From an uncultured archaeon (lineage in GTDB: Archaea > Asgardarchaeota > Heimdallarchaeia > Heimdallarchaeales > Kariarchaeaceae): a stretch of 12,389 nt of DNA. The notes beneath the pieces are model-generated. The model was not told the DNA's origin. It did not search any database and worked only from the letters and a program-made list of their open reading frames with translations. Numbering within the stretch: position 1 is the stretch's first letter; each line of letters begins with the position of its first letter. Made by a program: the position numbers and the translations under genes. The stretch is taken from NCBI GenBank assembly GCA_964645535.1, contig CAZYCQ010000079.1:1-12389 (forward strand), read 5' to 3'. Positions 1,315-12,389 of this stretch are shown here, in pieces.

Positions 1315-4300
1315 TCATATTTCTTCACGTTTCAGGACAAAAGCAACACCGGGTGCACCGTTTGAGGAGACCGCCTGCCAATCACTTGGACCATCAGTGT
1401 CGACTGTAAGGTCGATTCGTGCCAAGCTCTGCCCAGTGGATGCACTGATGCTCCATCCTGCAACATAGTTCTCCCATGCAACAAAATCGATCTCTGTTCC
1501 AGATGCATCCTTGAGACTCAGCATATCACCACTATTGCCCAAGGCAAGATTTAGGTCACCAAAATCAGGATTGAACCCGTAAAGGGCGAAGAAACCAGAT
1601 GTGGAACGGGCAATTACAAGAAAGCCCCCTGCAGGGATCACAGTGCCGGATGCGATAGAGTACGTACGAGAATTATCAGAGATTGTCCATCCAGTGAGAT
1701 CCACTGAAGAGCCAGTAGGATTGTACAGTTCAATCCATTCCTCAACGCTGTCCTTTCCGGGGGTGTCATAGAATACCTCAGAGATGATAATATGATCCAA
1801 GCCAGCGGCAGGTGTAGTTGCATTTGTGGCGATTGAACGAAGTCCTTCATTTCCGGACATGTCCACTGCACTTACCTCATAGCTGTAGGAAGTGCCTGCA
1901 CTCAGACCGACATCACTGTAGGAGGAAGTCGAAACTGATGCCACAAGGACACCGTCACGATATACGTTGTAATGATCCAAGTCAGGTTCAGTATTTGCAG
2001 TCCATGTGAGATCAATCTGTGAAGAGGAAACTGCGTTTGCCGTCAAACCCTGTACCTGCCCAGGAGGAGTGGTATCGGTTGGTGCCCATGCACTCAGATC
2101 AAAGATTCCATCGACAGAATAGTGATCAGATGCACCGGTTGCAGAAGGAGTATCCCCAACAGTGGATGAAAGCATTTGTCCTGCAAGGTATCCATTGACC
2201 ACCATGAAATCAATTCTTGATTCATAGGGAGATGTATAGTAGGTATAACCGGGATCTGTCGGGTTAAGTGTTCTGAAAACGTCGGTAAAGGTATGGACGG
2301 TGGAGGAATATTGACCATAGGTAGCATTTGCAGGATCCACAAGCATTGTCATCGGGCCATATCCCAAATTTCCGTTGGGAGCCAAGGCACCTGTATCTTG
2401 AGGTGAGAATGAATTAAGATCCCCTGCATAAATGATGTTAGCGGAGGAACCCAATGAATCCATGTAATTGATGATGCCTTCCTGTGCCCGTTCCCTCTTG
2501 TTCTCATTGGTTGTACCACTGGAAGCCTTCAAGTGAGCCCCGATGAAATGGACCGTACCGGTGCCGATGGCAAGCTTGACATCTATGAAGTCATGGGAAA
2601 CGTCATAGAGTGAACCGCTATCCAGTGTGACCAACGGGATGAGCTTGGCAGAGAGAATTGGGACACGGCTAAGCACTGCAAGACCTGTATACATACTTCC
2701 CTGACCAAGAGTCATGGCCTGAAGATAAGGAAGTTCATTTGAGAAATAAGTGTTCAGATCAACCAGCAATCGGTTTATGGTTGCGTTGCCACGATCATCC
2801 ATATCACCAGTCTCAACTAACAGCAGGACGTCGGGATTTTCCTCCTTGATCACATCAATGTAACCTGGATTCTGTCCCGATGCCTCGATGTTGTATGTCA
2901 TGAATTTGACGGCGGAATAATCCAAGGGAGCGACTCCTCCAAAAGCGGAGTTGTCAACATTAACTGTGACGGAAGTTGTGATTGAGTTGCCGAACATGTC
3001 AGTAGCAATTGCGGCAATAGTGTGTGATCCTGCACTTGCAGATCGGGAATCCCATACATAGAAGCTTGAGTAGGACACAGCAACTCCATCAATGCGTATT
3101 TCCCAATCTTTGATCAGGCTTCTGTCATTACCGTCAAGTCCAATCGAAACAAATCCGGAAACTGTCTGACCATCCACCAATCCGATGAAGGAGAGTGAAG
3201 GAGCTTCCAGCTCGGTTCCCCAAGCCGAAAGATGACCAGTAGCGGGATACAGCACCGGTTGCGTGTTACTGCCATCGGCGTTCTGCCTCTCCGCAAATTC
3301 GGCAGAACAGCCAGAGGTTTGTCCGTCCCAAGTGACTGCACTCACACAGTAATAGTAGGTGGTTCCTGTGACTACATTGCTGTCAGTGGCATAGCCCACA
3401 GCCCAATTGACCTCCTGCATGAGATCCCAAGTGGATGCGGTATCGTTCCACTTCCAGACGAGATAGCTCTTAACGAGATCCGAAGGGGTGTTGCCGTTGA
3501 GATGAGGTCGCCAAGTAATGAAATTCTCACCAGGATACCCGCTGTAATGCCGAGTGACGATTCGCGGTGCAGCCAAGGGATCTGAATCATAGTTGTCCGC
3601 ATCCTGTTTATAGGCATTGACCCTCGCAATGTAATGGGCTGCAATCGTTGGGCTGTGAATCACCAAGGCATTCTCGTCGTTGCTGTTGAAGCCAGAACCA
3701 CTCCAATTAGTACTTCCCGTCCAGACGATACTACCGTCAAACACTCCGAATTTGTGGTGATAGACACCCGGATTGGCATCGACGACGCCACCACCCCATG
3801 AAATGACATCATCAGCCTCACTGTAGGCATTCCTCCAACCACGATAGTCAAAAACACCCACAATAGCCACACCTCGATCACGGGCGCGTACAATTGCATC
3901 ATAAATTGAGTTCTCAGTAAGATAGAAGAGGGAAAGATAGATTGAACTGTTTGATGAATCAATCAGCTCAATCAGTCGCGTGAGACCCGTGTCTTTCGGA
4001 GAGAAGTAAGCTTCGACCTGTATCGATCCTGCCATCGCAATTTCCGCATTATTGTCCACCTTGGACGTTCCATAGGTATTCGCAAACAATTGGTCGAATT
4101 CTGCCTGATAGATGCCAGCCAACTCAGTACTCTTGATCCGAACCGCATCATTGGCATTGAAGAGCGTCCCCGTATCTGTCGGGTTCCAAGAGCCCGTAAA
4201 AACATATTCCCCATCAACAATGAAGAATTTGTTGTGCATGATGTTGGTTGTGGTGACCGCAGTCACAGAGATCCCTGCGTCGATCAAGGGTTGGAATTCG

Positions 4301-5361
4301 CCGATATTGTCACCATGTGCTGCTACACGCACCTGTACACCCCGAAGATGGGCATTGATAAGGGCGTCAATAGCAGGTTGCCAGCTCAGATGGTAGAGAG
4401 CGGCATCCACACTGACATTGGCACTGTCAAGCAAGCTCACCAGCCCATCAGAAATATTGCCAGGGTAAAGGTTCTCCATTGTGGGAACTGCTGCCAAGGG
4501 ATCTGTGAAATATACCTTGATCAGATCGGATACAGGACTGTTGTCTACTGTGACGTCTTTTGAAGTGGTTCCCACATTACCTGCGGCATCAAATGCATCA
4601 CATGTGATTGTATGCAGTCCCGAAGATTCCAACGTAGTATCCCAAAGATAGGAAGAACTCTGTGTACGTTCAACACCATCTATTTTTATGGAATAACCCG
4701 TCACACCAACGTTATCAGTAGCTGAACAGGTAACCTGTACCTGTCCTGCAACCACACTGCTGGTAGGGCTGTCAATGGAGACAACTGGAGCAGTAATGTC
4801 ACCCACACCATAACCGGAGCCTGGGGTGCCCAAAGAACCACTATCCGCCCAGTCACTGCCGGTATCGGTATCAATGGGCATCTGCGAAGAATCACTGAGA
4901 CGGTGGATCGTGCCATCAACCGCTGAAGCAGACCAACCGGTAACATAGGATTCCCAAGCCACAAAGTCAACAACCGTACCGGCATCATCCTTCAGGGTGA
5001 GCTGGTCACCACTATTCCCCAAAGCAAGGGTGATCAATCCATCAGGAAGAAAACCATACAGGGACTGGAAACCGGCATTGTCACGGGCAAGCACAAGATA
5101 GCCGCCAGAAGGAATGGTCACCAAAGGAAGGGCATTGCCCTTAGTATTGTCTTCAAGTGTCCACCCCGCAACTGAAATCGATGTCGAGGTGGGATTGAAA
5201 ATCTCAACCCATTCACAGGTCGAATCACAACCGGGAGTGTCATACAGCACTTCCGTAATGATCAGATTCGTCCCCGATGGATTGGAAACCGTGCCATGGT
5301 TGGCAAAACTTAGCCCCATGGCAACAATGAGCAGGAGTGAAAAAAGCTTGCGGGCACTCAT
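1315..5361 (-). CDS. Large secreted multidomain nuclease-like protein (~1348 aa): signal peptide, lamin-tail domain, Ig-like, two PLD (HKD) domains, FN3-like, Ig-like, EEP domain, FN3, lamin-tail domain
   Basis: Likely start MSARKLFSLLLIVAMGLSFA at ATG 5361 (signal peptide); the extension to 5541 looks non-coding. LTD motifs IITEVLYDTPG..EWVEIFNPT and IISEVFYDTPG..EWIELYNPT. HKD motifs HNKFFIVD-x6-GSWN (~4183-4236) and HHKFGVFD-x6-GSTN (~3706-3759). EEP motifs MTYNI, AGDLNS, SRIDF, SDH. FN3 motif LTWTAN..YSYEVSAVD. Confidence 0.88.
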   Translation of the reverse strand: MSARKLFSLLLIVAMGLSFANHGTVSNPSGTNLIITEVLYDTPGCDSTCEWVEIFNPTSTSISVAGWTLEDNTKGNALPLVTIPSGGYLVLARDNAGFQSLYGFLPDGLITLALGNSGDQLTLKDDAGTVVDFVAWESYVTGWSASAVDGTIHRLSDSSQMPIDTDTGSDWADSGSLGTPGSGYGVGDITAPVVSIDSPTSSVVAGQVQVTCSATDNVGVTGYSIKIDGVERTQSSSYLWDTTLESSGLHTITCDAFDAAGNVGTTSKDVTVDNSPVSDLIKVYFTDPLAAVPTMENLYPGNISDGLVSLLDSANVSVDAALYHLSWQPAIDALINAHLRGVQVRVAAHGDNIGEFQPLIDAGISVTAVTTTNIMHNKFFIVDGEYVFTGSWNPTDTGTLFNANDAVRIKSTELAGIYQAEFDQLFANTYGTSKVDNNAEIAMAGSIQVEAYFSPKDTGLTRLIELIDSSNSSIYLSLFYLTENSIYDAIVRARDRGVAIVGVFDYRGWRNAYSEADDVISWGGGVVDANPGVYHHKFGVFDGSIVWTGSTNWSGSGFNSNDENALVIHSPTIAAHYIARVNAYKQDADNYDSDPLAAPRIVTRHYSGYPGENFITWRPHLNGNTPSDLVKSYLVWKWNDTASTWDLMQEVNWAVGYATDSNVVTGTTYYYCVSAVTWDGQTSGCSAEFAERQNADGSNTQPVLYPATGHLSAWGTELEAPSLSFIGLVDGQTVSGFVSIGLDGNDRSLIKDWEIRIDGVAVSYSSFYVWDSRSASAGSHTIAAIATDMFGNSITTSVTVNVDNSAFGGVAPLDYSAVKFMTYNIEASGQNPGYIDVIKEENPDVLLLVETGDMDDRGNATINRLLVDLNTYFSNELPYLQAMTLGQGSMYTGLAVLSRVPILSAKLIPLVTLDSGSLYDVSHDFIDVKLAIGTGTVHFIGAHLKASSGTTNENKRERAQEGIINYMDSLGSSANIIYAGDLNSFSPQDTGALAPNGNLGYGPMTMLVDPANATYGQYSSTVHTFTDVFRTLNPTDPGYTYYTSPYESRIDFMVVNGYLAGQMLSSTVGDTPSATGASDHYSVDGIFDLSAWAPTDTTPPGQVQGLTANAVSSSQIDLTWTANTEPDLDHYNVYRDGVLVASVSTSSYSDVGLSAGTSYSYEVSAVDMSGNEGLRSIATNATTPAAGLDHIIISEVFYDTPGKDSVEEWIELYNPTGSSVDLTGWTISDNSRTYSIASGTVIPAGGFLVIARSTSGFFALYGFNPDFGDLNLALGNSGDMLSLKDASGTEIDFVAWENYVAGWSISASTGQSLARIDLTVDTDGPSDWQAVSSNGAPGVAFVLKREEI

Positions 5362-5680
5362 TACGCAAAATCTCCGGAATTTTTGGGAAATTATCTGAAT
5401 CCCCTTCCAAATGACTTTCTTTAAACCTTGTGGCAATTGACTTGCAAATATTTGAATGCGCCGCACAGGAAACGGATACACCACAAAATTGCTAGATCCA
5501 GCTCTCAGAAGACAATTCAAACCCAAACACAAACGGCGCACTTTTACGATTTTCGAGATAATTTTTCTCCATACGCATGGGATTTTACGATTTTTTTACC
5601 AACAGCTGCAAATTTTTGTAACAAGTCACTTTCAGACACCAGTCCACAACCTTAAACTGCCCGCAATCCCTACAAAGACT

Positions 5681-6094: not shown

Positions 6095-6496
6095 CTAGGT
6101 ATCGAAATTCTTCAGTCGATCGTCAAAAGTAAGGATACCTTTGCAAGCCGTCTGACGGGACGAAACGTATACTATCGCGTCCGTTAAGGTAAGTGGCTTC
6201 CTCTCCCCGAGCTCTGATCGAAAAATCTTCAGGGCATCACTGAAAATAGATTCATTACAATACAGAACATTACAGAAACCATTTTCCAAAAGAACATAAC
6301 TCCACTCTATTGCAGTCTGTATCCCTGCAACTTTCGTCATTATCAGAAAGAACTCATCTAGCACATAATCTGAAGTGAGAAGTTGCAAAAAATGATCCTG
6401 CTTGAAATTTGTTAATTGGGAAACTGCTTCATCATGATACTTGTCTGCCTTGTTTGCCAAAGCCACAAAAAAAGATGTGTCAAGAAAATACCGCAT
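6095..6496 (-). CDS. vapC: PIN-domain ribonuclease toxin (VapC family)
   Basis: MRYFLDTSFFVAL..D-x-x-H..TSDYVLDE..LTLTDA..ILTFD gives the acidic PIN tetrad. ATG 6496 lies 1 nt after the antitoxin stop and is preceded by GGAGG. Confidence 0.9.
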   Translation of the reverse strand: MRYFLDTSFFVALANKADKYHDEAVSQLTNFKQDHFLQLLTSDYVLDEFFLIMTKVAGIQTAIEWSYVLLENGFCNVLYCNESIFSDALKIFRSELGERKPLTLTDAIVYVSSRQTACKGILTFDDRLKNFDT

Positions 6497-6497
6497 T

Positions 6498-6761
6498 TCA
6501 ACCCTCCGCAACAAGATCATCCAACATTTCAGGATCTGTACGTATCTTCCACTCCGATGAAAGCGACAGAACCTTGTCAATCGAGGAGGAGGTGGTGAAA
6601 TTGAAATCAAGAAGCTGCTGGAAATCACGGGAACCCAACTTCACAAGCATATCCAAAAGATCCTGCTGAGAAATCTTTCGACCTAACTTCAAAGTCAGTC
6701 TAGCCTGCAGTCGATCCAGTTCAGCTTTTGTCTCATCCCGAATCTTGATTGAAGAAGCCAT
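6498..6761 (-). CDS. Antitoxin (VapB-like, ribbon-helix-helix type N-terminus)
   Basis: MASSIKIRDETKAELDRLQARL..KISQQDLLDMLV (beta strand plus two helices) with an acidic C-terminal DPEMLDDLV; directly upstream of vapC. Confidence 0.8.
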   Translation of the reverse strand: MASSIKIRDETKAELDRLQARLTLKLGRKISQQDLLDMLVKLGSRDFQQLLDFNFTTSSSIDKVLSLSSEWKIRTDPEMLDDLVAEG

Positions 6762-6780
6762 ATGTGAATAAGGAAGCCAC

Positions 6781-6816
6781 AATTAATATACATTTCTACA
6801 AATAATACTTTTCTAC
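6781..6816 (-). promoter_or_regulatory. Putative archaeal promoter of the vapBC operon with an adjacent direct repeat
   Basis: Minus strand GAAATGTATATTAATT (BRE/TATA-like) lies about 20-35 nt upstream of ATG 6761. Direct repeat ATACATTTCTAC (6788-6799) / ATACTTTTCTAC (6805-6816). Confidence 0.45.
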
Positions 6817-7100: not shown

Positions 7101-7466
7101 ATGTTCAGAGCCGAAGAGGTGGAAAAGGAAGCAAAGGATTTCAGCAAACTGGAGATCCATCCAAAACATAGGCAAATGATTGAACAGGTGGCACAGGTTA
7201 TGGAGAAATATATCGACATCAGCCACCTGGCACTCATGGGATTCGCATGGAAATCAATCAAAGATTGGCAGATCGAACACAAAATGACTGCACTTGAAGT
7301 CAGCCTTAGATCCAGACCAGAAAGGGACAAAGCAACATGGGAAATGTTCCAGATTTGCAGGGGATACCTCGAAAGAATTCTTAGAGACCCAGAAGACAAA
7401 GGAAAACTGAAAACAGCAATAGATGAAGCCTACCAATATTATCTCGACCACCTCTCAAAACCCTGA
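7101..7466 (+). CDS. Hypothetical all-alpha-helical protein (121 aa)
   Basis: Clean ORF with protein-like charged/amphipathic composition; TTTTAATA at 7071-7078, about 25 nt upstream of the ATG. No motif recognised. Confidence 0.75.
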   Translation: MFRAEEVEKEAKDFSKLEIHPKHRQMIEQVAQVMEKYIDISHLALMGFAWKSIKDWQIEHKMTALEVSLRSRPERDKATWEMFQICRGYLERILRDPEDKGKLKTAIDEAYQYYLDHLSKP

Positions 7467-7623: not shown

Positions 7624-9675
7624 CTAAACACACCAAATGAAATGAGTCGGGTCTTTCGGAAAGGCACCCTGTTTTGCCTTCTTGTTCGCTTTCTTTGCAA
7701 ATTCAATGTTCGAAGGAAATTTTGTAATCTCCAGTGCTGACCCAATATGGAGCCGACATAGTTTTGCAATGTCTTCCATCAGAGACTCACAATTTGAACC
7801 TTCAACATGGATGGGTTGAGGGGTCTGATGTTTGACACCTTTACTTTCATAATACCTGTAAATGATCGAGCTTGTTTGAATATAGCCATTGTTGTTGTCA
7901 AGGATAAAGTAAGCAATGTCAAAGGGCATGTGCGTATCACGAAATCGGTCAAAAATCCGCGTGGCGCGTGGTTCAGTGATCCGATAGATTGGTTTAGAAG
8001 TTTTAACCAACAGGTTAATTTCTTTTTTTGAAAAGGTAATTCCAGAATAAAGAATAATATCGAATGGAGGAAAACAAGAAAGCAATTTTTTTAAGGCAAC
8101 GGAGCCATTCTTTTCTTCGACGGTGAATATTTGCGTGTGTCGCCCACTTTTTTCGGTTAAAACAGCAGAATAGAGAAAATTATTTCCTTTTTTGTCCTTG
8201 TGGATACCTAGGTAGCTTGCAGTCATTGCACGTTCCAATTCCCAATTTGGCAAGCCCCCATTTGCACCGATACCGAGAACAACATTGTTTATCTTTTTTC
8301 GAAAATCTTTCGGGTTCATTGTCTGAACCGGAATGCCTCGATTTGTCAAATTACGAATTATTGGCTCATCGTACCCAATTTGGAGAACACAACCATTCCC
8401 ATTCAGCTTGATTGCATCAATATTTTCTACCATCTTAACGACGATTTTCTTGCCTAGTTTATTCGACAGGAAACCTTTCGAAGTTTTGACTGATTCGCCC
8501 CTAAGCAAGGTTTCAACAACATCTTTTGAAAAGAGGAAATTTAAAATGGCTTTCAATTCCTTTGTGGTAATTCCGTGATGATGAATAAACAATTCAAAGC
8601 TTTCTCTCTTTTTCCGAGTATTGTGCTTTAGTCGGTCGGAAACTGAACCGAATACCTTACCGTCAAATTTTATATTTGGCAGGTCAATTGTACCCCTATT
8701 CTTGGGCACAAACAAGGCAGGGGTTAATCGTTTTCCAAAGATTTCTAGATTGGACAGTTCCCTGGCAAAATGACTCTCAATTTCAAAATATTTCTTTTCA
8801 GGACTTAGCGCAATATGTGTTGACAATTCCTGTCTTTCTGGAAATTTCAGATGTTTCATTTCTATTAATGGTTTCAAACGTTCAAGGGGATAGGTATAAC
8901 CATTGTCAAGAACAGCCAAGAAGTCAGTACGGTTGATGCCTTTAACAATATAGCCATTGTTTTCACATCTGTCATTTGCAAAGTCTACCAAAGTTTTTCC
9001 ATTTAAATTGTATGTAAAGGGATTACCCTTGACTATTTTTTCAACATTCCATTTCCGTGATGCCATCAAAGGCGAAAGAGGACAGTTTAACAGGAATTTT
9101 GAACAATCAGACTGTGGACAAATATCGTAAACAGTTTTATTATTGAGCTGCAAGTCCCCATCTTTTGAAACCCAATCTGCAAGTGTTTTTTTCGTAAAGA
9201 GCCTGTAACAGGTATCCAGAAAGAATCCCCATCCACCATCGAAAACAACAACTTGAATGCGATAACCCATGTACGCTAAAACTTCCGATTGAATTACTGG
9301 ATGTTTTTCAAAAAATTCCAAAAATTCTTGTTGATCATATCGATAGTATTCTGGCATGTGGGTAACGGCGTAAGCATTGCGAACCTTTTCCTTTATGATC
9401 TGATAGATCAGCTGTTTCCAATCCTCGGAATCCGGTCTGATTTTTTCTGCATCAAGACCATGATCTCTAAGTTTTTGAACGGATTTGCCAAGCATTCTCT
9501 GAACTACAATAATGGATTTGCCAATGGAATAGTGGATTGCGTCTGTGTCTTGAAAAATATCTGCAACGACACCTTCAACATCTTTCTCTGGATCATTGGC
9601 TATTTTCAAAAATGTGATGTCAAGTTCTGAAAAATGAACTTTGAATTTGAAGAAATTTGGAACGACATCTGTCAT
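7624..9675 (-). CDS. Divergent long prokaryotic Argonaute-like protein (N-L1-PAZ-L2-MID-PIWI), predicted catalytically inactive (Ago-1)
   Basis: 683 aa. L1-like YMGYRIQVVVFDGGWGFFLDTCYRL; PAZ-end YTYPLERL; L2 LSPEKKYFEI; MID GIPVQTM..NNVVLGIGANGGLPNWEL (cf. GIPxQ..NxxLxxxAKxGGxPW); PIWI YLGIH (cf. IGID), IILYSG (cf. IIHRDG), TPQPIHV, IAKLCRL..TKFPSNIEFAKK (cf. LPxTIxYADK). Confidence 0.78.
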   Translation of the reverse strand: MTDVVPNFFKFKVHFSELDITFLKIANDPEKDVEGVVADIFQDTDAIHYSIGKSIIVVQRMLGKSVQKLRDHGLDAEKIRPDSEDWKQLIYQIIKEKVRNAYAVTHMPEYYRYDQQEFLEFFEKHPVIQSEVLAYMGYRIQVVVFDGGWGFFLDTCYRLFTKKTLADWVSKDGDLQLNNKTVYDICPQSDCSKFLLNCPLSPLMASRKWNVEKIVKGNPFTYNLNGKTLVDFANDRCENNGYIVKGINRTDFLAVLDNGYTYPLERLKPLIEMKHLKFPERQELSTHIALSPEKKYFEIESHFARELSNLEIFGKRLTPALFVPKNRGTIDLPNIKFDGKVFGSVSDRLKHNTRKKRESFELFIHHHGITTKELKAILNFLFSKDVVETLLRGESVKTSKGFLSNKLGKKIVVKMVENIDAIKLNGNGCVLQIGYDEPIIRNLTNRGIPVQTMNPKDFRKKINNVVLGIGANGGLPNWELERAMTASYLGIHKDKKGNNFLYSAVLTEKSGRHTQIFTVEEKNGSVALKKLLSCFPPFDIILYSGITFSKKEINLLVKTSKPIYRITEPRATRIFDRFRDTHMPFDIAYFILDNNNGYIQTSSIIYRYYESKGVKHQTPQPIHVEGSNCESLMEDIAKLCRLHIGSALEITKFPSNIEFAKKANKKAKQGAFPKDPTHFIWCV

Positions 9676-10457
9676 GGAAGCACCCTCGAAATGGCTTTTG
9701 GATTTATGTGAACCAGAAATGCAATTAAATCAGTAAAGCTTTCCAAGTTTTTCAACCTTTCACCCAGCAAAGGAATTATTTGGTAAATGACCTGTTGAAA
9801 TGCCATTTTTACCTGTTCCTTGTAAGAGAGCCACTGATTGAGAACATTCGGTTTTGTTGCATCACAAATGATTTCAAAGTAGAGTGAATCACCAATGAAT
9901 TTGCCGATTAGAACAAAATTTTCCAAACCCAATTCATGGAATGAAACATCAGGAATCCGCAACAGCAAAGCAGATCCATCACCTGCACCTTCAATTGAAA
10001 AGAAGTCACCATCATCCTCTTTCTCAAATGCTTTTCGAAGACCTTCTGCGAAACAGACCCCTACTTTAAATGGAGTATCCACAATCAACTTCACGCGAGG
10101 AACATTGCCTTTAGATAAGGCATCCCTTAGATTTGACAACTGATTGAAAACCGAAAGACCCTTTTCCGTCAACTCATATTTTCTGGTATCTTTTCTTATC
10201 GATGTCACTAAGTTAAACTGCCTCAACCCCTTCATTGCATAATGAATTTTTTGCCGATAGATTGCAGGCTCTGACGCGTCTTCAGTCCCATCCGCCTCAA
10301 CAGCAGATACGAGAGCCCTTAGCTCGGATTCCAATTCCGATACCGATAGAGGGCCATTACGAAGGATGTAGAGAATTTCCAAAGCATATGGACGGAAAAG
10401 TGCCTTGAGAATTTGCCGAAGATCAACAAACATATTATGAAAATTAATTTTTGACAT
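9672..10457 (-). CDS. Winged helix-turn-helix (ArsR/HxlR-like) transcriptional regulator with an uncharacterised C-terminal domain
   Basis: ILKALFRPYALEILYILRNGPLSVSELESEL..RQKIHYAMKGLRQFNLV..RKYELTEKG is a classic wHTH. The stop overlaps the Ago-1 start (ATGA, 9672-9675). The true start may be the second Met at 10433. Confidence 0.85.
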   Translation of the reverse strand: MSKINFHNMFVDLRQILKALFRPYALEILYILRNGPLSVSELESELRALVSAVEADGTEDASEPAIYRQKIHYAMKGLRQFNLVTSIRKDTRKYELTEKGLSVFNQLSNLRDALSKGNVPRVKLIVDTPFKVGVCFAEGLRKAFEKEDDGDFFSIEGAGDGSALLLRIPDVSFHELGLENFVLIGKFIGDSLYFEIICDATKPNVLNQWLSYKEQVKMAFQQVIYQIIPLLGERLKNLESFTDLIAFLVHINPKAISRVLP

Positions 10458-10498
10458 TTAAACATATTTATTGAGTTTTATCCAAAATTAATTTTCAT
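10437..10498. promoter_or_regulatory. 18-bp inverted repeat (17/18) with palindromic core AAAATTAATTTT in the divergent promoter; candidate operator
   Basis: ATGAAAATTAATTTTTGA (10437-10454) versus TCCAAAATTAATTTTCAT (10481-10498); cores at 10440-10451 and 10484-10495. Confidence 0.6.
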
Positions 10499-10533
10499 CA
10501 AAATTTATCAGTTGTTTGGTCAACATATCAGAT

Positions 10534-12389
10534 ATGGTTACAACAAACCTTATCGCTACAAAACAACCAATAATGCAAGAGATCAACGTGACAATCGTTG
10601 ATTGCGACCAACTTGACTACAAGGAAAAGGCAAGAATGGCCACAAAATTCCAAAATGAACTGAAAACCATCACCACATTCGGAGAATCTGTCATTCTAGT
10701 TGGATCATTCAACAAAAACAAATTGAGCAGGATATTGCAAGGAAAGAAATACAAGATCAGCCACAGAACCCTTAAATCCAAAAACAACCAAGACATAAAC
10801 CTCCTCCAAAAAATAGCTAGACAAGCAGTCAAAAAACTGTTTCACAATATGGGATATACAATACAGGAAGGAGGCAAGTTGTTCAAGCCTAAGCCCCATA
10901 ATATTCAATCAGGAATTCAAGTTCATGAAGCCGTCGATTTTAATGTAATTGTAACAAAACAAGGTTACCTGATTGTAGCAATCGACCCATGCTATAGAAA
11001 CACCAAATTTCTTACTTCAAAAGAAATAAAGAACGGCATGACCATCAGAGTCCCATACGGAACAACATGGATCGATGCAACCATCATCGAAATAATCAAT
11101 GGAGGGCTAATGGAAAAGGGACGCCATCCAACTAACCCAAACAAAACACTCATCGAATACTGGACACAAGAAAAATCCTGGTTCCTCAAAAAATATGCAA
11201 TTGGATCCATTACTGATTTTGATGCAGTCCTAGTTGAAATTCATAATGAAGAGAGATTGCAACTCACATATCCAATTGCAGTCTGCAGAAAATTGCTTGA
11301 TCCAAAGAAAATGAAACTTCCAAAACTTACTGCGAAGAAAACAACAATACTTTCAATCATCAATAGCCTTAGCCACCACGAATTGCAGATTGGGGACAAA
11401 AAAACCTCATTTACATCCTCTCCGCTTACTAACCAACAGTTGACCAAATACGGCTTCAGCTTCGGAAAATTTGACATACCCGTCCTGAAATTCAAATCAA
11501 CAACATTCCAACCAAAAAATGGAAAAGGACATGAGATCAGAAAACAATTAAAAAAAGACGGACCACACGCCAAACCAAAACAACTGATCGTAAATATCAT
11601 CTCCACATTAAAGCAACAGCAAAATGAAATTATCGCCAGACAGATAATCAGTGATGCAGCAAATATGAATTTGGGAACATGGAAAATTGGAAAGTTCATC
11701 GACTTAAAAAAAGGACACTCAGAACTCAACAAAGCAATACAAAACATATCAGCCAATGAGGTCTTCGCAATAATCCCAGGAAAAACAACTAACAACTCTT
11801 ATGACACACTAAACCATAAATTGGCAAAAAAAGGAATCGTCTGCAAGAACTTACGCATGAAAAACGCAACTGAAATCATAAAAAAAAAAAAAAAAGGAAT
11901 AAAAACAAGTGAAACCATTGCAATCAGCCTATTCGCAAGAAGCCTCAAAAACGGTGAAAACATCGTCCTGCTGAAAAATGGACTTGAATCAAACGCAAAA
12001 TTCCCAATTTTCCTCACCCTTGACATTAGCAGAGATCCAAAATCCGCAAAATCATATTCCGCAACCATAACCGCAATCGATCAACAAGGAATAATCATCA
12101 AATGTCCACAAACCATCACGTTTACTGAAGGATACTTCGATCCAAATGATATCGCACAATGGATTAAGACAACAATAAATTACGTCAATCAAATCACCAA
12201 CAAACAACCGGATACATTCATTTACGTACATGATGGAAGACTGAACAGAAACCAAGTCAACGCACTCCAAAAAGGAATAGAAAAAATAACCGCAAATAAT
12301 TACCTCATAGTTGAAGCTACAAAAAGAGTCAACGAAAGATTCAGCGACAACAATATTGATGGAACATGGATGAAAGCACAGGACAAAAC
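10534..12389 (+). CDS. Second divergent long Argonaute-like protein (Ago-2), partial at the 3' end (>618 aa), with catalytic-type PIWI residues
   Basis: Absent from the ORF track. By hand translation it is open from ATG 10534 (MVTTNLIATK..) to the window end. L1-like GIQVHEAVDFNVIVTKQGYLIVAIDPCYR; PAZ-like KTLIEYW..LTYPIAVC; L2 PVLKF..KDGPH; MID VFAIIPG..SYDTLNHKLAKKGIVCKNL; PIWI IFLTLDISR (D497), TEG (E532), FIYVHDGR (D567), YLIVEATKR..ERF..GTW. Confidence 0.85.
   Translation, partial: MVTTNLIATKQPIMQEINVTIVDCDQLDYKEKARMATKFQNELKTITTFGESVILVGSFNKNKLSRILQGKKYKISHRTLKSKNNQDINLLQKIARQAVKKLFHNMGYTIQEGGKLFKPKPHNIQSGIQVHEAVDFNVIVTKQGYLIVAIDPCYRNTKFLTSKEIKNGMTIRVPYGTTWIDATIIEIINGGLMEKGRHPTNPNKTLIEYWTQEKSWFLKKYAIGSITDFDAVLVEIHNEERLQLTYPIAVCRKLLDPKKMKLPKLTAKKTTILSIINSLSHHELQIGDKKTSFTSSPLTNQQLTKYGFSFGKFDIPVLKFKSTTFQPKNGKGHEIRKQLKKDGPHAKPKQLIVNIISTLKQQQNEIIARQIISDAANMNLGTWKIGKFIDLKKGHSELNKAIQNISANEVFAIIPGKTTNNSYDTLNHKLAKKGIVCKNLRMKNATEIIKKKKKGIKTSETIAISLFARSLKNGENIVLLKNGLESNAKFPIFLTLDISRDPKSAKSYSATITAIDQQGIIIKCPQTITFTEGYFDPNDIAQWIKTTINYVNQITNKQPDTFIYVHDGRLNRNQVNALQKGIEKITANNYLIVEATKRVNERFSDNNIDGTWMKAQDK
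11880..11895 (+). repeat. A16 homopolymer tract, in frame within Ago-2 (encodes a Lys5 run)
   Basis: ATA AAA AAA AAA AAA AAA GGA at 11878-11898. Confidence 0.9.

Follow-up and report, generated by a model that had tools for sequence, protein, structure and literature searches.

A divergent Asgard Argonaute, probably of the slicer type, encoded opposite a second, predicted inactive Argonaute in a hot-spring heimdallarchaeial contig

What kind of protein is encoded by the long open frame that runs off the end of a 12,389-nucleotide contig (CAZYCQ010000079.1 of GenBank assembly GCA_964645535.1, forward strand) from a heimdallarchaeial genome, and does it act alone? The window analyzed here is this whole stretch of DNA, and the frame in question, which we call AgoA, occupies positions 10534 to 12389 of it. 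No known organisms are closer relatives of eukaryotes than the Asgard archaea, which show an unusual expansion of Argonautes; HrAgo1 is, to our knowledge, the only one of these Argonautes that has been characterized. An initial annotation had interpreted AgoA as a potentially active, highly divergent programmable nuclease; our analysis supports that interpretation and adds what the annotation had missed, namely that AgoA faces a gene pair that includes a second Argonaute, AgoB. The best explanation, to which we give a probability of roughly two in three, is that 10534-12389 encodes the first 618 residues of a slicer-type Argonaute of about 730 amino acids (aa), which belongs to an Asgard-specific clade related to the long-A prokaryotic Argonautes (pAgos) and is part of a defence module.

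Translation of the plus strand gives 618 residues from an ATG at 10534 through the last base of the contig without a stop codon, just as the initial annotation had described. The list of open reading frames (ORFs) contains the corresponding plus-strand ORF at 10516..12387, with 624 aa from a TTG and an open 3' end. About 6.8% of random codons are stops at 37% GC, and the chance of 618 stop-free codons is approximately 1e-19. Three minus-strand ORFs lie opposite AgoA (11241-11795, 11799-12068, and 12052-12387) and are antisense shadows, in agreement with the earlier claim. The window is the complete contig, C79, of a metagenome-assembled genome (MAG) of 3.6 Mb in 176 contigs that is 89% complete, so the AgoA frame is ended by the assembly and not by a stop codon.

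AgoA had no match in Pfam, the Piwi and PAZ families included, in NCBIfam, or in a phmmer search against all Protein Data Bank (PDB) sequences, and word-index homologue searches with AgoA and with AgoB returned only the query itself. The pAgo models of PADLOC did match AgoA, with E values of 1.2e-9, 5.1e-8, and 6.1e-6, the best being PDLC02388, a model that likewise picks up the Synechococcus elongatus and Thermus thermophilus genomes, the carriers of SeAgo and TtAgo. When 1.84 billion representatives were searched exhaustively with HMMER, about 8 true relatives emerged, 693 to 831 aa long and at most 33% identical to AgoA, among which only the most distant, P0011, reached Pfam Piwi (E 4.7e-9). 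The AlphaFold model of AgoA, built on 8 relatives, has a predicted local distance difference test score (pLDDT) of 81.4 and a predicted template modelling score of 0.72. Foldseek aligned this model over its full length with KmAgo at an E value of 1e-24, followed by AaAgo, PliAgo, hAgo2, and TtAgo at values to 1e-20. VIA-align placed residues 1-612 of the 618 on KmAgo 2-672 with a Z score of 17.9, and the structural alignment to TtAgo (8-628), which the initial annotation had proposed as a check, superposed 536 residues at 5.4 Å. Identity to the solved Argonautes is 11-17%, and the AgoA family profile reached TtAgo at E 5e-6 while a PIWI-centred profile reached PDB entry 9iad at E 1.4e-5. By its fold and by the PADLOC pAgo models AgoA is an Argonaute, and the description of it as both an Argonaute and a highly divergent one holds.

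The model shows the bilobed N-L1-PAZ-L2-MID-PIWI architecture of long Argonautes, with the C-terminal third of PIWI lying off the contig; what the window contains is the 5' ~85% of the gene on the plus strand. Model secondary structure and the alignments to KmAgo and TtAgo assign the N-L1-PAZ-L2 lobe to residues ~1-344 (10534..11565, with approximate boundaries), and the PAZ motif Y246-P247...R252 within it is invariant in the AgoA family. MID follows at residues ~345-455 (11566..11898), where the model has a Rossmann-like beta/alpha pattern at 349-450. The first part of PIWI takes up residues ~456-618 (11899..12389), with D497 in beta1, E532 after beta3, and D567 in beta4. This 6-part architecture with an RNase H-type PIWI carrying a DEDX tetrad is that of the active long-A pAgos (TtAgo, KmAgo, CbAgo, PfAgo, and MjAgo), which are also the best structural matches of AgoA.

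The 3 acidic residues that the initial annotation had named lie exactly where it placed them: D497 (12022-12024) in LTLDIS, E532 (12127-12129) in FTEGYF, and D567 (12232-12234) in YVHDG. Their assignment to the DEDX positions is a point on which family conservation, alignments to solved Argonautes, and strand order in the model agree. In an alignment of 14 AgoA family sequences, with the window copy lacking its C-terminus, the first and second Asp (D1, D497, and D2, D567) are invariant and the tetrad Glu is present in every sequence, shifted one column later in 5 distant members; E532 itself sits in a conserved F-x-E-G-Y-F motif. The family profile aligns the Asp of H-D-G with TtAgo D546 and the C-terminal His of the family with TtAgo D660, and the match of the PIWI-centred profile to 9iad_A pairs D1, E, D2, and position 4 with GLDIS, E, RDG, and GSD in a single alignment. 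In the AgoA model, D497 lies in strand 491-500, E532 directly follows strand 528-531 and precedes helix 537-555, and D567 ends strand 561-567, which is the beta1-beta2-beta3-alpha1-beta4 order of RNase H. The initial annotation had regarded the Glu as its least certain assignment, and the loop alignment around E532 is indeed short. It had also placed the fourth residue outside the window, and that position falls beyond the contig end. Among the 8 full-length sequences nearest to the window copy the fourth residue is H in 6 and D in 2, and by analogy to these nearest relatives we infer a His in AgoA; in 5 other family members, the distant Loki/Gerd-type subgroup and P0011, it is Q.

Guide binding can be considered in the same way. 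In the 5'-end pocket of MID, AgoA keeps Y423, but where Argonautes with a Y-K-Q-K pocket have the first K and the Q it has N427 and K438, respectively. AgoA thus has a variant of the canonical Y/H-K-Q-K 5'-phosphate pocket, while the distant AgoA subgroup keeps Y-x3-K, with the Q also kept in 2 of its 4 Loki/Gerd members. Since the pocket is non-canonical, guide chemistry cannot be deduced from it.

Several of these observations weigh against an active slicer. There is no Pfam Piwi match; the residues flanking the tetrad are non-canonical, with T standing two positions ahead of D1, where a G is usual, and H in place of the usual R before D2, both as first annotated; the Q at position 4 in the distant subgroup means that the tetrad is not universally kept; N427 and K438 make the MID pocket atypical; none of the sequences searched extended to the fourth tetrad position or the stop codon of AgoA; and guide and target type are not readable from the sequence. 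Compared with the long-A pAgos, then, AgoA differs by its 11-17% identity, by T-L-D for G-x-D and H-D-G for R-D-G, and by the missing canonical K and Q of MID. The motifs around D1 and D2, the MID pocket, and the fourth residue lying off the contig would also fit an Argonaute that binds guides without cutting, silencing or sensing by binding alone and leaving any cleavage to another protein. At position 4, Q occurs in 5 of the 14 family members, including the AgoA of one of the twin cassettes described below (G060), and just ~20% of Asgard Argonautes retain the D, E, and D (DED) of the tetrad (PMC11291487). We nevertheless consider a non-cutting AgoA unlikely. Strict retention of D1, E, and D2 among sequences that share only 17-33% identity is difficult to understand if the protein does not cut, position 4 is H or D in the 8 nearest full-length sequences, and the truly dead neighbours, of which AgoB is an example, have lost all 4 positions.

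A further question is why AgoA ends where it does. Judging from the length of its relatives, about 110 codons are gone beyond the contig end, the fourth tetrad position among them. No k-mer overlap was found between the end of C79 and other contig ends of the genome, a six-frame search of its 176 contigs returned no C-terminal fragment (best E 0.84), and a metagenome protein-pattern scan and an exact 40-mer scan were both without a match. The AgoA stretch is present in 1 of 3 runs of the study, a hot-spring metagenome, where the contig ends earlier, at 12203, and differs from the window by 6 single-nucleotide polymorphisms (SNPs) over the last 650 bases, 4 of them synonymous and 2 conservative. 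Because this independent contig stops earlier and amid the 6 SNPs, a break of the assembly at strain variation appears to be the simplest reading of the truncation, and the organism itself would carry a complete gene, interrupted only where the contig ends. That AgoA is a genuinely truncated or decaying pseudogene is something to which we give very little credence. The missing C-terminal fragment would fit decay, as would the frameshifted appearance of the other Argonaute module of the same genome (on C139) and the presence of an AgoB C-terminus remnant in the related genome G007; set against these are a frame that stays open up to the last base of the contig, the earlier end of the contig from the same sample, SNPs that are mostly synonymous, and a MAG that is just 89% complete.

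The MAG that carries AgoA is a hot-spring member of the Heimdallarchaeia, and the host is probably a Kariarchaeaceae archaeon. Asgard Argonautes (asAgos) were catalogued by Bastiaanssen et al. 2024 (PMC11217426), who described 138 of them in 15 clades, and Supplementary Dataset 1 of that work includes ASG340_01986 (Kari, 731 aa) and ASG341_00360 (Kari, 741 aa). Together with ASG414_00098, ASG073_03135, and ASG134_00173 these belong to one clade. The published trees support this clade at 100% and place it next to the PfAgo/MjAgo group, and it is retained in the "Long-A + eAgo" trees, in which eAgo denotes eukaryotic Argonautes. Over those parts of the published alignment that are printed, the closest relatives of AgoA, P0004 (731 aa) and P0005, agree with ASG340_01986 and ASG341_00360, P0004 with a difference of one residue, and the length of P0004 also agrees with that of ASG340_01986. 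AgoA shares 32-33% identity with P0004, with which it also groups. In a quick tree, which is midpoint-rooted, has Shimodaira-Hasegawa-like approximate likelihood ratio test (SH-aLRT) supports, and is provisional, the AgoA clade has a support of 99, and the window copy with its relatives in L013 (P0004's contig) and L014 has a support of 96. As a sequence AgoA is new, with at most 33% identity to anything in the databases searched. On this comparison it is a new, ~32%-identical member of a catalogued, uncharacterised clade, and its novelty applies to the sequence and not to the family, which was already in the 2024 catalogue. The main text of that paper uses neither "Kari" nor "Gerd" and does not discuss the clade, which is confined to supplementary tables and trees, and the paper contains no description of the clade's tetrad, neighbours, or pairing (PMC11217426).

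The neighbourhood of AgoA is more unusual than AgoA itself. AgoB is a full-length long Argonaute of 683 aa encoded on the minus strand at 7624..9675. It matched the PADLOC model PprPIWI with an E value of 6.1e-31, matched pAgo models as well, and matched the PAZ region of AaAgo; a literature search for "PprPIWI" found no paper. In AgoB, D1 is replaced by H, an Asp is missing at D2, and position 4 is occupied by K. This loss is common to all of its orthologues, and from these residues AgoB is predicted to be catalytically dead. AgoA and AgoB were also considered as recent paralogues, which was ruled out (BLAST E 0.08). The N-terminal lobe of AgoB contains an insert of the form C-P-x-x-D/E-C...C-P-L-S-P, whose C186, C191, and C198 are invariant among AgoB and its orthologues and which may bind a metal, a feature that would be unusual for an Argonaute.

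Upstream of AgoB on the same strand, at 9672..10457, lies a gene for a winged helix-turn-helix (wHTH) protein of 261 aa (P0003), whose stop codon overlaps the start codon of AgoB by 4 nt (ATGA), so that both genes make up a translationally coupled operon. This protein matches Pfam HTH_5 (3.1e-5) and Csa3-type wHTH proteins, and its C-terminal half has no known family. Its structural model is poor (pLDDT 55), the lead from the structure atlas being ArnR1-like wHTH proteins (0.87). A prediction of a complex between AgoB and the wHTH protein scored 0.00, which counts neither for nor against their interaction.

AgoA faces this minus-strand pair across an AT-rich spacer of 76 bp. The divergent control region at 10437..10498, made up of spacer sequence and the beginning of the wHTH reading frame, contains an 18-nt inverted repeat, and each arm of this repeat carries the 12-nt palindrome AAAATTAATTTT. 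The two copies, at 10440-10451 and 10484-10495, are 44 nt apart and are the only ones in the window, against an expectation of 0.16, and 2 occurrences were reached in 1 of 200 shuffles, a statistic that is weakened by the local AT-richness. The spacers of relatives do not share AAAATTAATTTT. It is plausible that the 2 copies are candidate operators for the wHTH protein, which would then control the promoter region shared by the 2 transcription units.

This cassette, consisting of a dead AgoB and a wHTH protein facing a DED-bearing Argonaute, was found in 4 loci: the window, L013, G060/L011, and G056/L049. L013 has an AgoB 27% identical to that of the window (E 5e-72) and a wHTH protein (E 3e-4) facing an AgoA. 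G060/L011 has an AgoB-type protein (E 9e-18) and, in the same position, a small gene that is the counterpart of the wHTH gene, again facing an AgoA. In G056/L049 an AgoB-like protein and a wHTH protein (HTH_45/Csa3) face a 709-aa Piwi-domain protein of a different clade with the tetrad D, E, D, E. The strict AgoB-clade loci, 4 of 4 examined, have a DED-bearing long Argonaute 1 to 3 genes off, and these partners come from 3 Argonaute lineages. The quick tree resolves the paired AgoB proteins as one clade (support 83), while their active-type partners are polyphyletic, comprising 2 AgoA subclades and the 709-aa type. Since the arrangement recurs in 4 loci, AgoA, the wHTH protein, and AgoB are probably one defence module. 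Neighbours of AgoA in a further locus, L020, were compared as possible homologues of AgoB and the wHTH protein and rejected, and alignment A1 was too divergent for locus finding.

In the quick tree the paired AgoB proteins are sister (98) to dead Argonautes from an operon with a Cap4-type nuclease. Four loci, L051 (G003, of the window's genus), L050 (G006), L052 (G160), and L054 (G175), contain this conserved operon of 4 genes, which encode a Cap4-type dsDNA nuclease (E 1e-9), a protein of 228-234 aa, a dead long Argonaute of 733-745 aa, and a protein of 592-632 aa without a family. It looks like an uncharacterised Asgard effector system built around a dead Argonaute. A sister genus contains an isolated frame of 112 aa (L055, G007:C459:5828-6052) whose match to the AgoB profile (E 1e-29) is restricted to 75 positions at the C-terminus and which is probably the remnant of a decayed AgoB gene.

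Does AgoA then work as one half of a pair? In the mechanism that we propose, AgoA would be able to stand alone as a slicer, while AgoB and the wHTH protein would form a dead-Argonaute module in need of a nuclease partner, which in this lineage would probably be the second Argonaute. Alternatively, AgoA would not be a stand-alone slicer but would supply the nuclease to a machine of two Argonautes in which AgoB and the wHTH protein recognize the invader, and we regard this as a tentative but serious possibility. It would account for the DED-bearing long Argonautes, from 3 lineages, near all 4 strict AgoB-clade loci, and for the sister clade of dead Argonautes being paired instead with a Cap4 nuclease operon. 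Adjacent pairs of the same kind also appear in the published gene list, as ASG340_01986/01988, ASG134_00171/00173, ASG131_04275/04279, ASG347_02881/02885, and ASG413_01332/01333 (PMC11217426). Yet no AgoB lies near AgoA in 10 of the 13 AgoA-family loci, which indicates that AgoA can exist alone, and AgoA and AgoB are divergently transcribed rather than joined in one operon. With the same reserve, AgoB, its coupled wHTH protein, and AgoA might constitute an undescribed two-Argonaute immune module in which a slicing Argonaute replaces the Cap4-type nuclease of the sister clade. A search of the accessible literature found no description of paired long pAgos, which does not disprove their existence elsewhere.

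Systems built on a dead Argonaute are known from the long-B pAgos (BPAN, BPAS, and BPAM; PMC10620215), in which, as with AgoB, a dead full-length Argonaute stands beside a partner. The logic of a dead sensor Argonaute with an effector is also seen in the AgoB sister clade and its operon with a Cap4-type nuclease. In contrast to the long-B systems, AgoB is placed by published trees in an Asgard clade near the HrAgo2 group and not among RsAgo-type long-B proteins, and its neighbour is another Argonaute, an arrangement that a term search did not find in the text of PMC10620215.

Within the preferred reading, a slicer-type AgoA in a defence module, AgoA would load a short single-stranded guide in its MID and PAZ pockets and, once guided, would cut complementary nucleic acid, most likely invading DNA. 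The lead toward DNA interference comes from the PD-(D/E)XK or NurA-like neighbours of other AgoA genes, as in APACE1. A small PD-(D/E)XK gene lies immediately upstream of AgoA in L045, L017, and L021 (the matches in L045 and L017 being weak, E 0.002-0.01), and NurA-like genes flank AgoA in L020, L047, and L048. In APACE1, a long-A pAgo is associated with the Cas4-family nuclease ACE1, which trims DNA guides (Bobadilla Ugarte et al. 2025, PMC12094033). The upstream PD-(D/E)XK genes reproduce this pAgo-ACE layout, but the visible part of the window locus shows no such nuclease, and the Argonautes are of unrelated subclades.

Individual loci give further detail on these neighbours. In L017 (P0006, on an 866-kb contig) a Mre11-Rad50-HerA-NurA operon stands beside AgoA, in addition to the small PD-(D/E)XK gene just upstream, and the NurA-like gene just downstream of AgoA in L020 (P0009) gives a similar DNA-end-resection setting. 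In L046, L047, and L048, which belong to Asgard family f20, AgoA faces a conserved divergent pair of genes for proteins of 374 aa and 265-272 aa without a Pfam family, a NurA-like nuclease gene (E 4e-6) comes after AgoA, and the fourth tetrad residue is Q.

AgoA could instead be an RNA-guided, RNA-targeting Argonaute of the eukaryotic kind, serving gene regulation or defence against RNA viruses. The Asgard host would suit this role, since HrAgo1 shows RNA-guided RNA silencing in Asgard archaea, and so would the retention of the AgoA clade in the "Long-A + eAgo" trees beside PfAgo and MjAgo (PMC11217426). Human Ago2 and PIWI proteins also rank close to pAgos in the fold searches, although fold scores do not separate eAgos from pAgos. 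We consider this role improbable: neither an RNase III nor a Dicer-like helicase turned up in the neighbourhood, and the neighbours of the relatives are DNA nucleases (PD-(D/E)XK and NurA). Moreover, PfAgo and MjAgo, the characterized near neighbours of AgoA in the tree, are DNA-guided.

The remainder of the window and of the genome provides context. GC drops from ~0.48 to ~0.37 near 5.5 kb, and the Argonaute cassette has a GC of 0.37-0.40 against a genome mean of 0.41. This low-GC cassette lies beside a PIN-domain gene (6095-6782, minus strand, E 1e-12), which is consistent with a defence island. The likely true start of the PIN gene is an internal Met before FLDTS; an ORF of 94 aa (6498-6782) that reads like a ribbon-helix-helix antitoxin and has no Pfam match overlaps it upstream, and the 2 are probably a VapBC pair. 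A PIN gene is found near AgoA in L013 as well. Convergent with AgoB is an ORF of 121 aa (7101-7466, plus strand) in an A-rich stretch (AT skew 0.30), helical-looking and without a Pfam family, which we list as a putative gene. The higher-GC part of the window encodes, on the minus strand (1315-5541), a multidomain protein of 1408 aa. It combines a pair of PLD-like domains with an endonuclease/exonuclease/phosphatase domain, Big_7, fn3, and a pair of lamin-tail domains; it is probably a phosphodiesterase or nuclease that is secreted or displayed on the surface, and probably unrelated to the Argonaute cassette. At 73-1254, also on the minus strand, is a 393-aa fusion of a glutaredoxin domain with a thioredoxin-reductase-type flavoprotein. 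Scanning the window for Rfam families and for tRNAs gave no match.

A third Argonaute is encoded in the same genome on C139 (L005, 337-3280) and is a class I short pAgo (PADLOC pAgo_I, E 3e-119). It is preceded by a PD-(D/E)XK ORF of the type "Aga_REase_Archaea" (E 6e-15). As this ORF covers just the first 156 of 416 model positions and is followed by an ORF of 161 aa in another frame, the partner gene may be frameshifted or misassembled.

For the biology of this family, the AgoA clade would combine a slicer-type active site with a very divergent scaffold and an altered 5'-end pocket, and it could reveal new guide or target preferences. The hot-spring origin is attractive for thermostable programmable nucleases. 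In practice, the full-length orthologues P0004, P0005, and P0006 are more useful than the truncated copy in the window. The most interesting aspect is the paired-Argonaute context. If both proteins cooperate, the recurrent association with a dead Argonaute would show that Argonaute immunity can be assembled in a new way, and the pairing of AgoA with AgoB bears on the origin of multi-Argonaute pathways.

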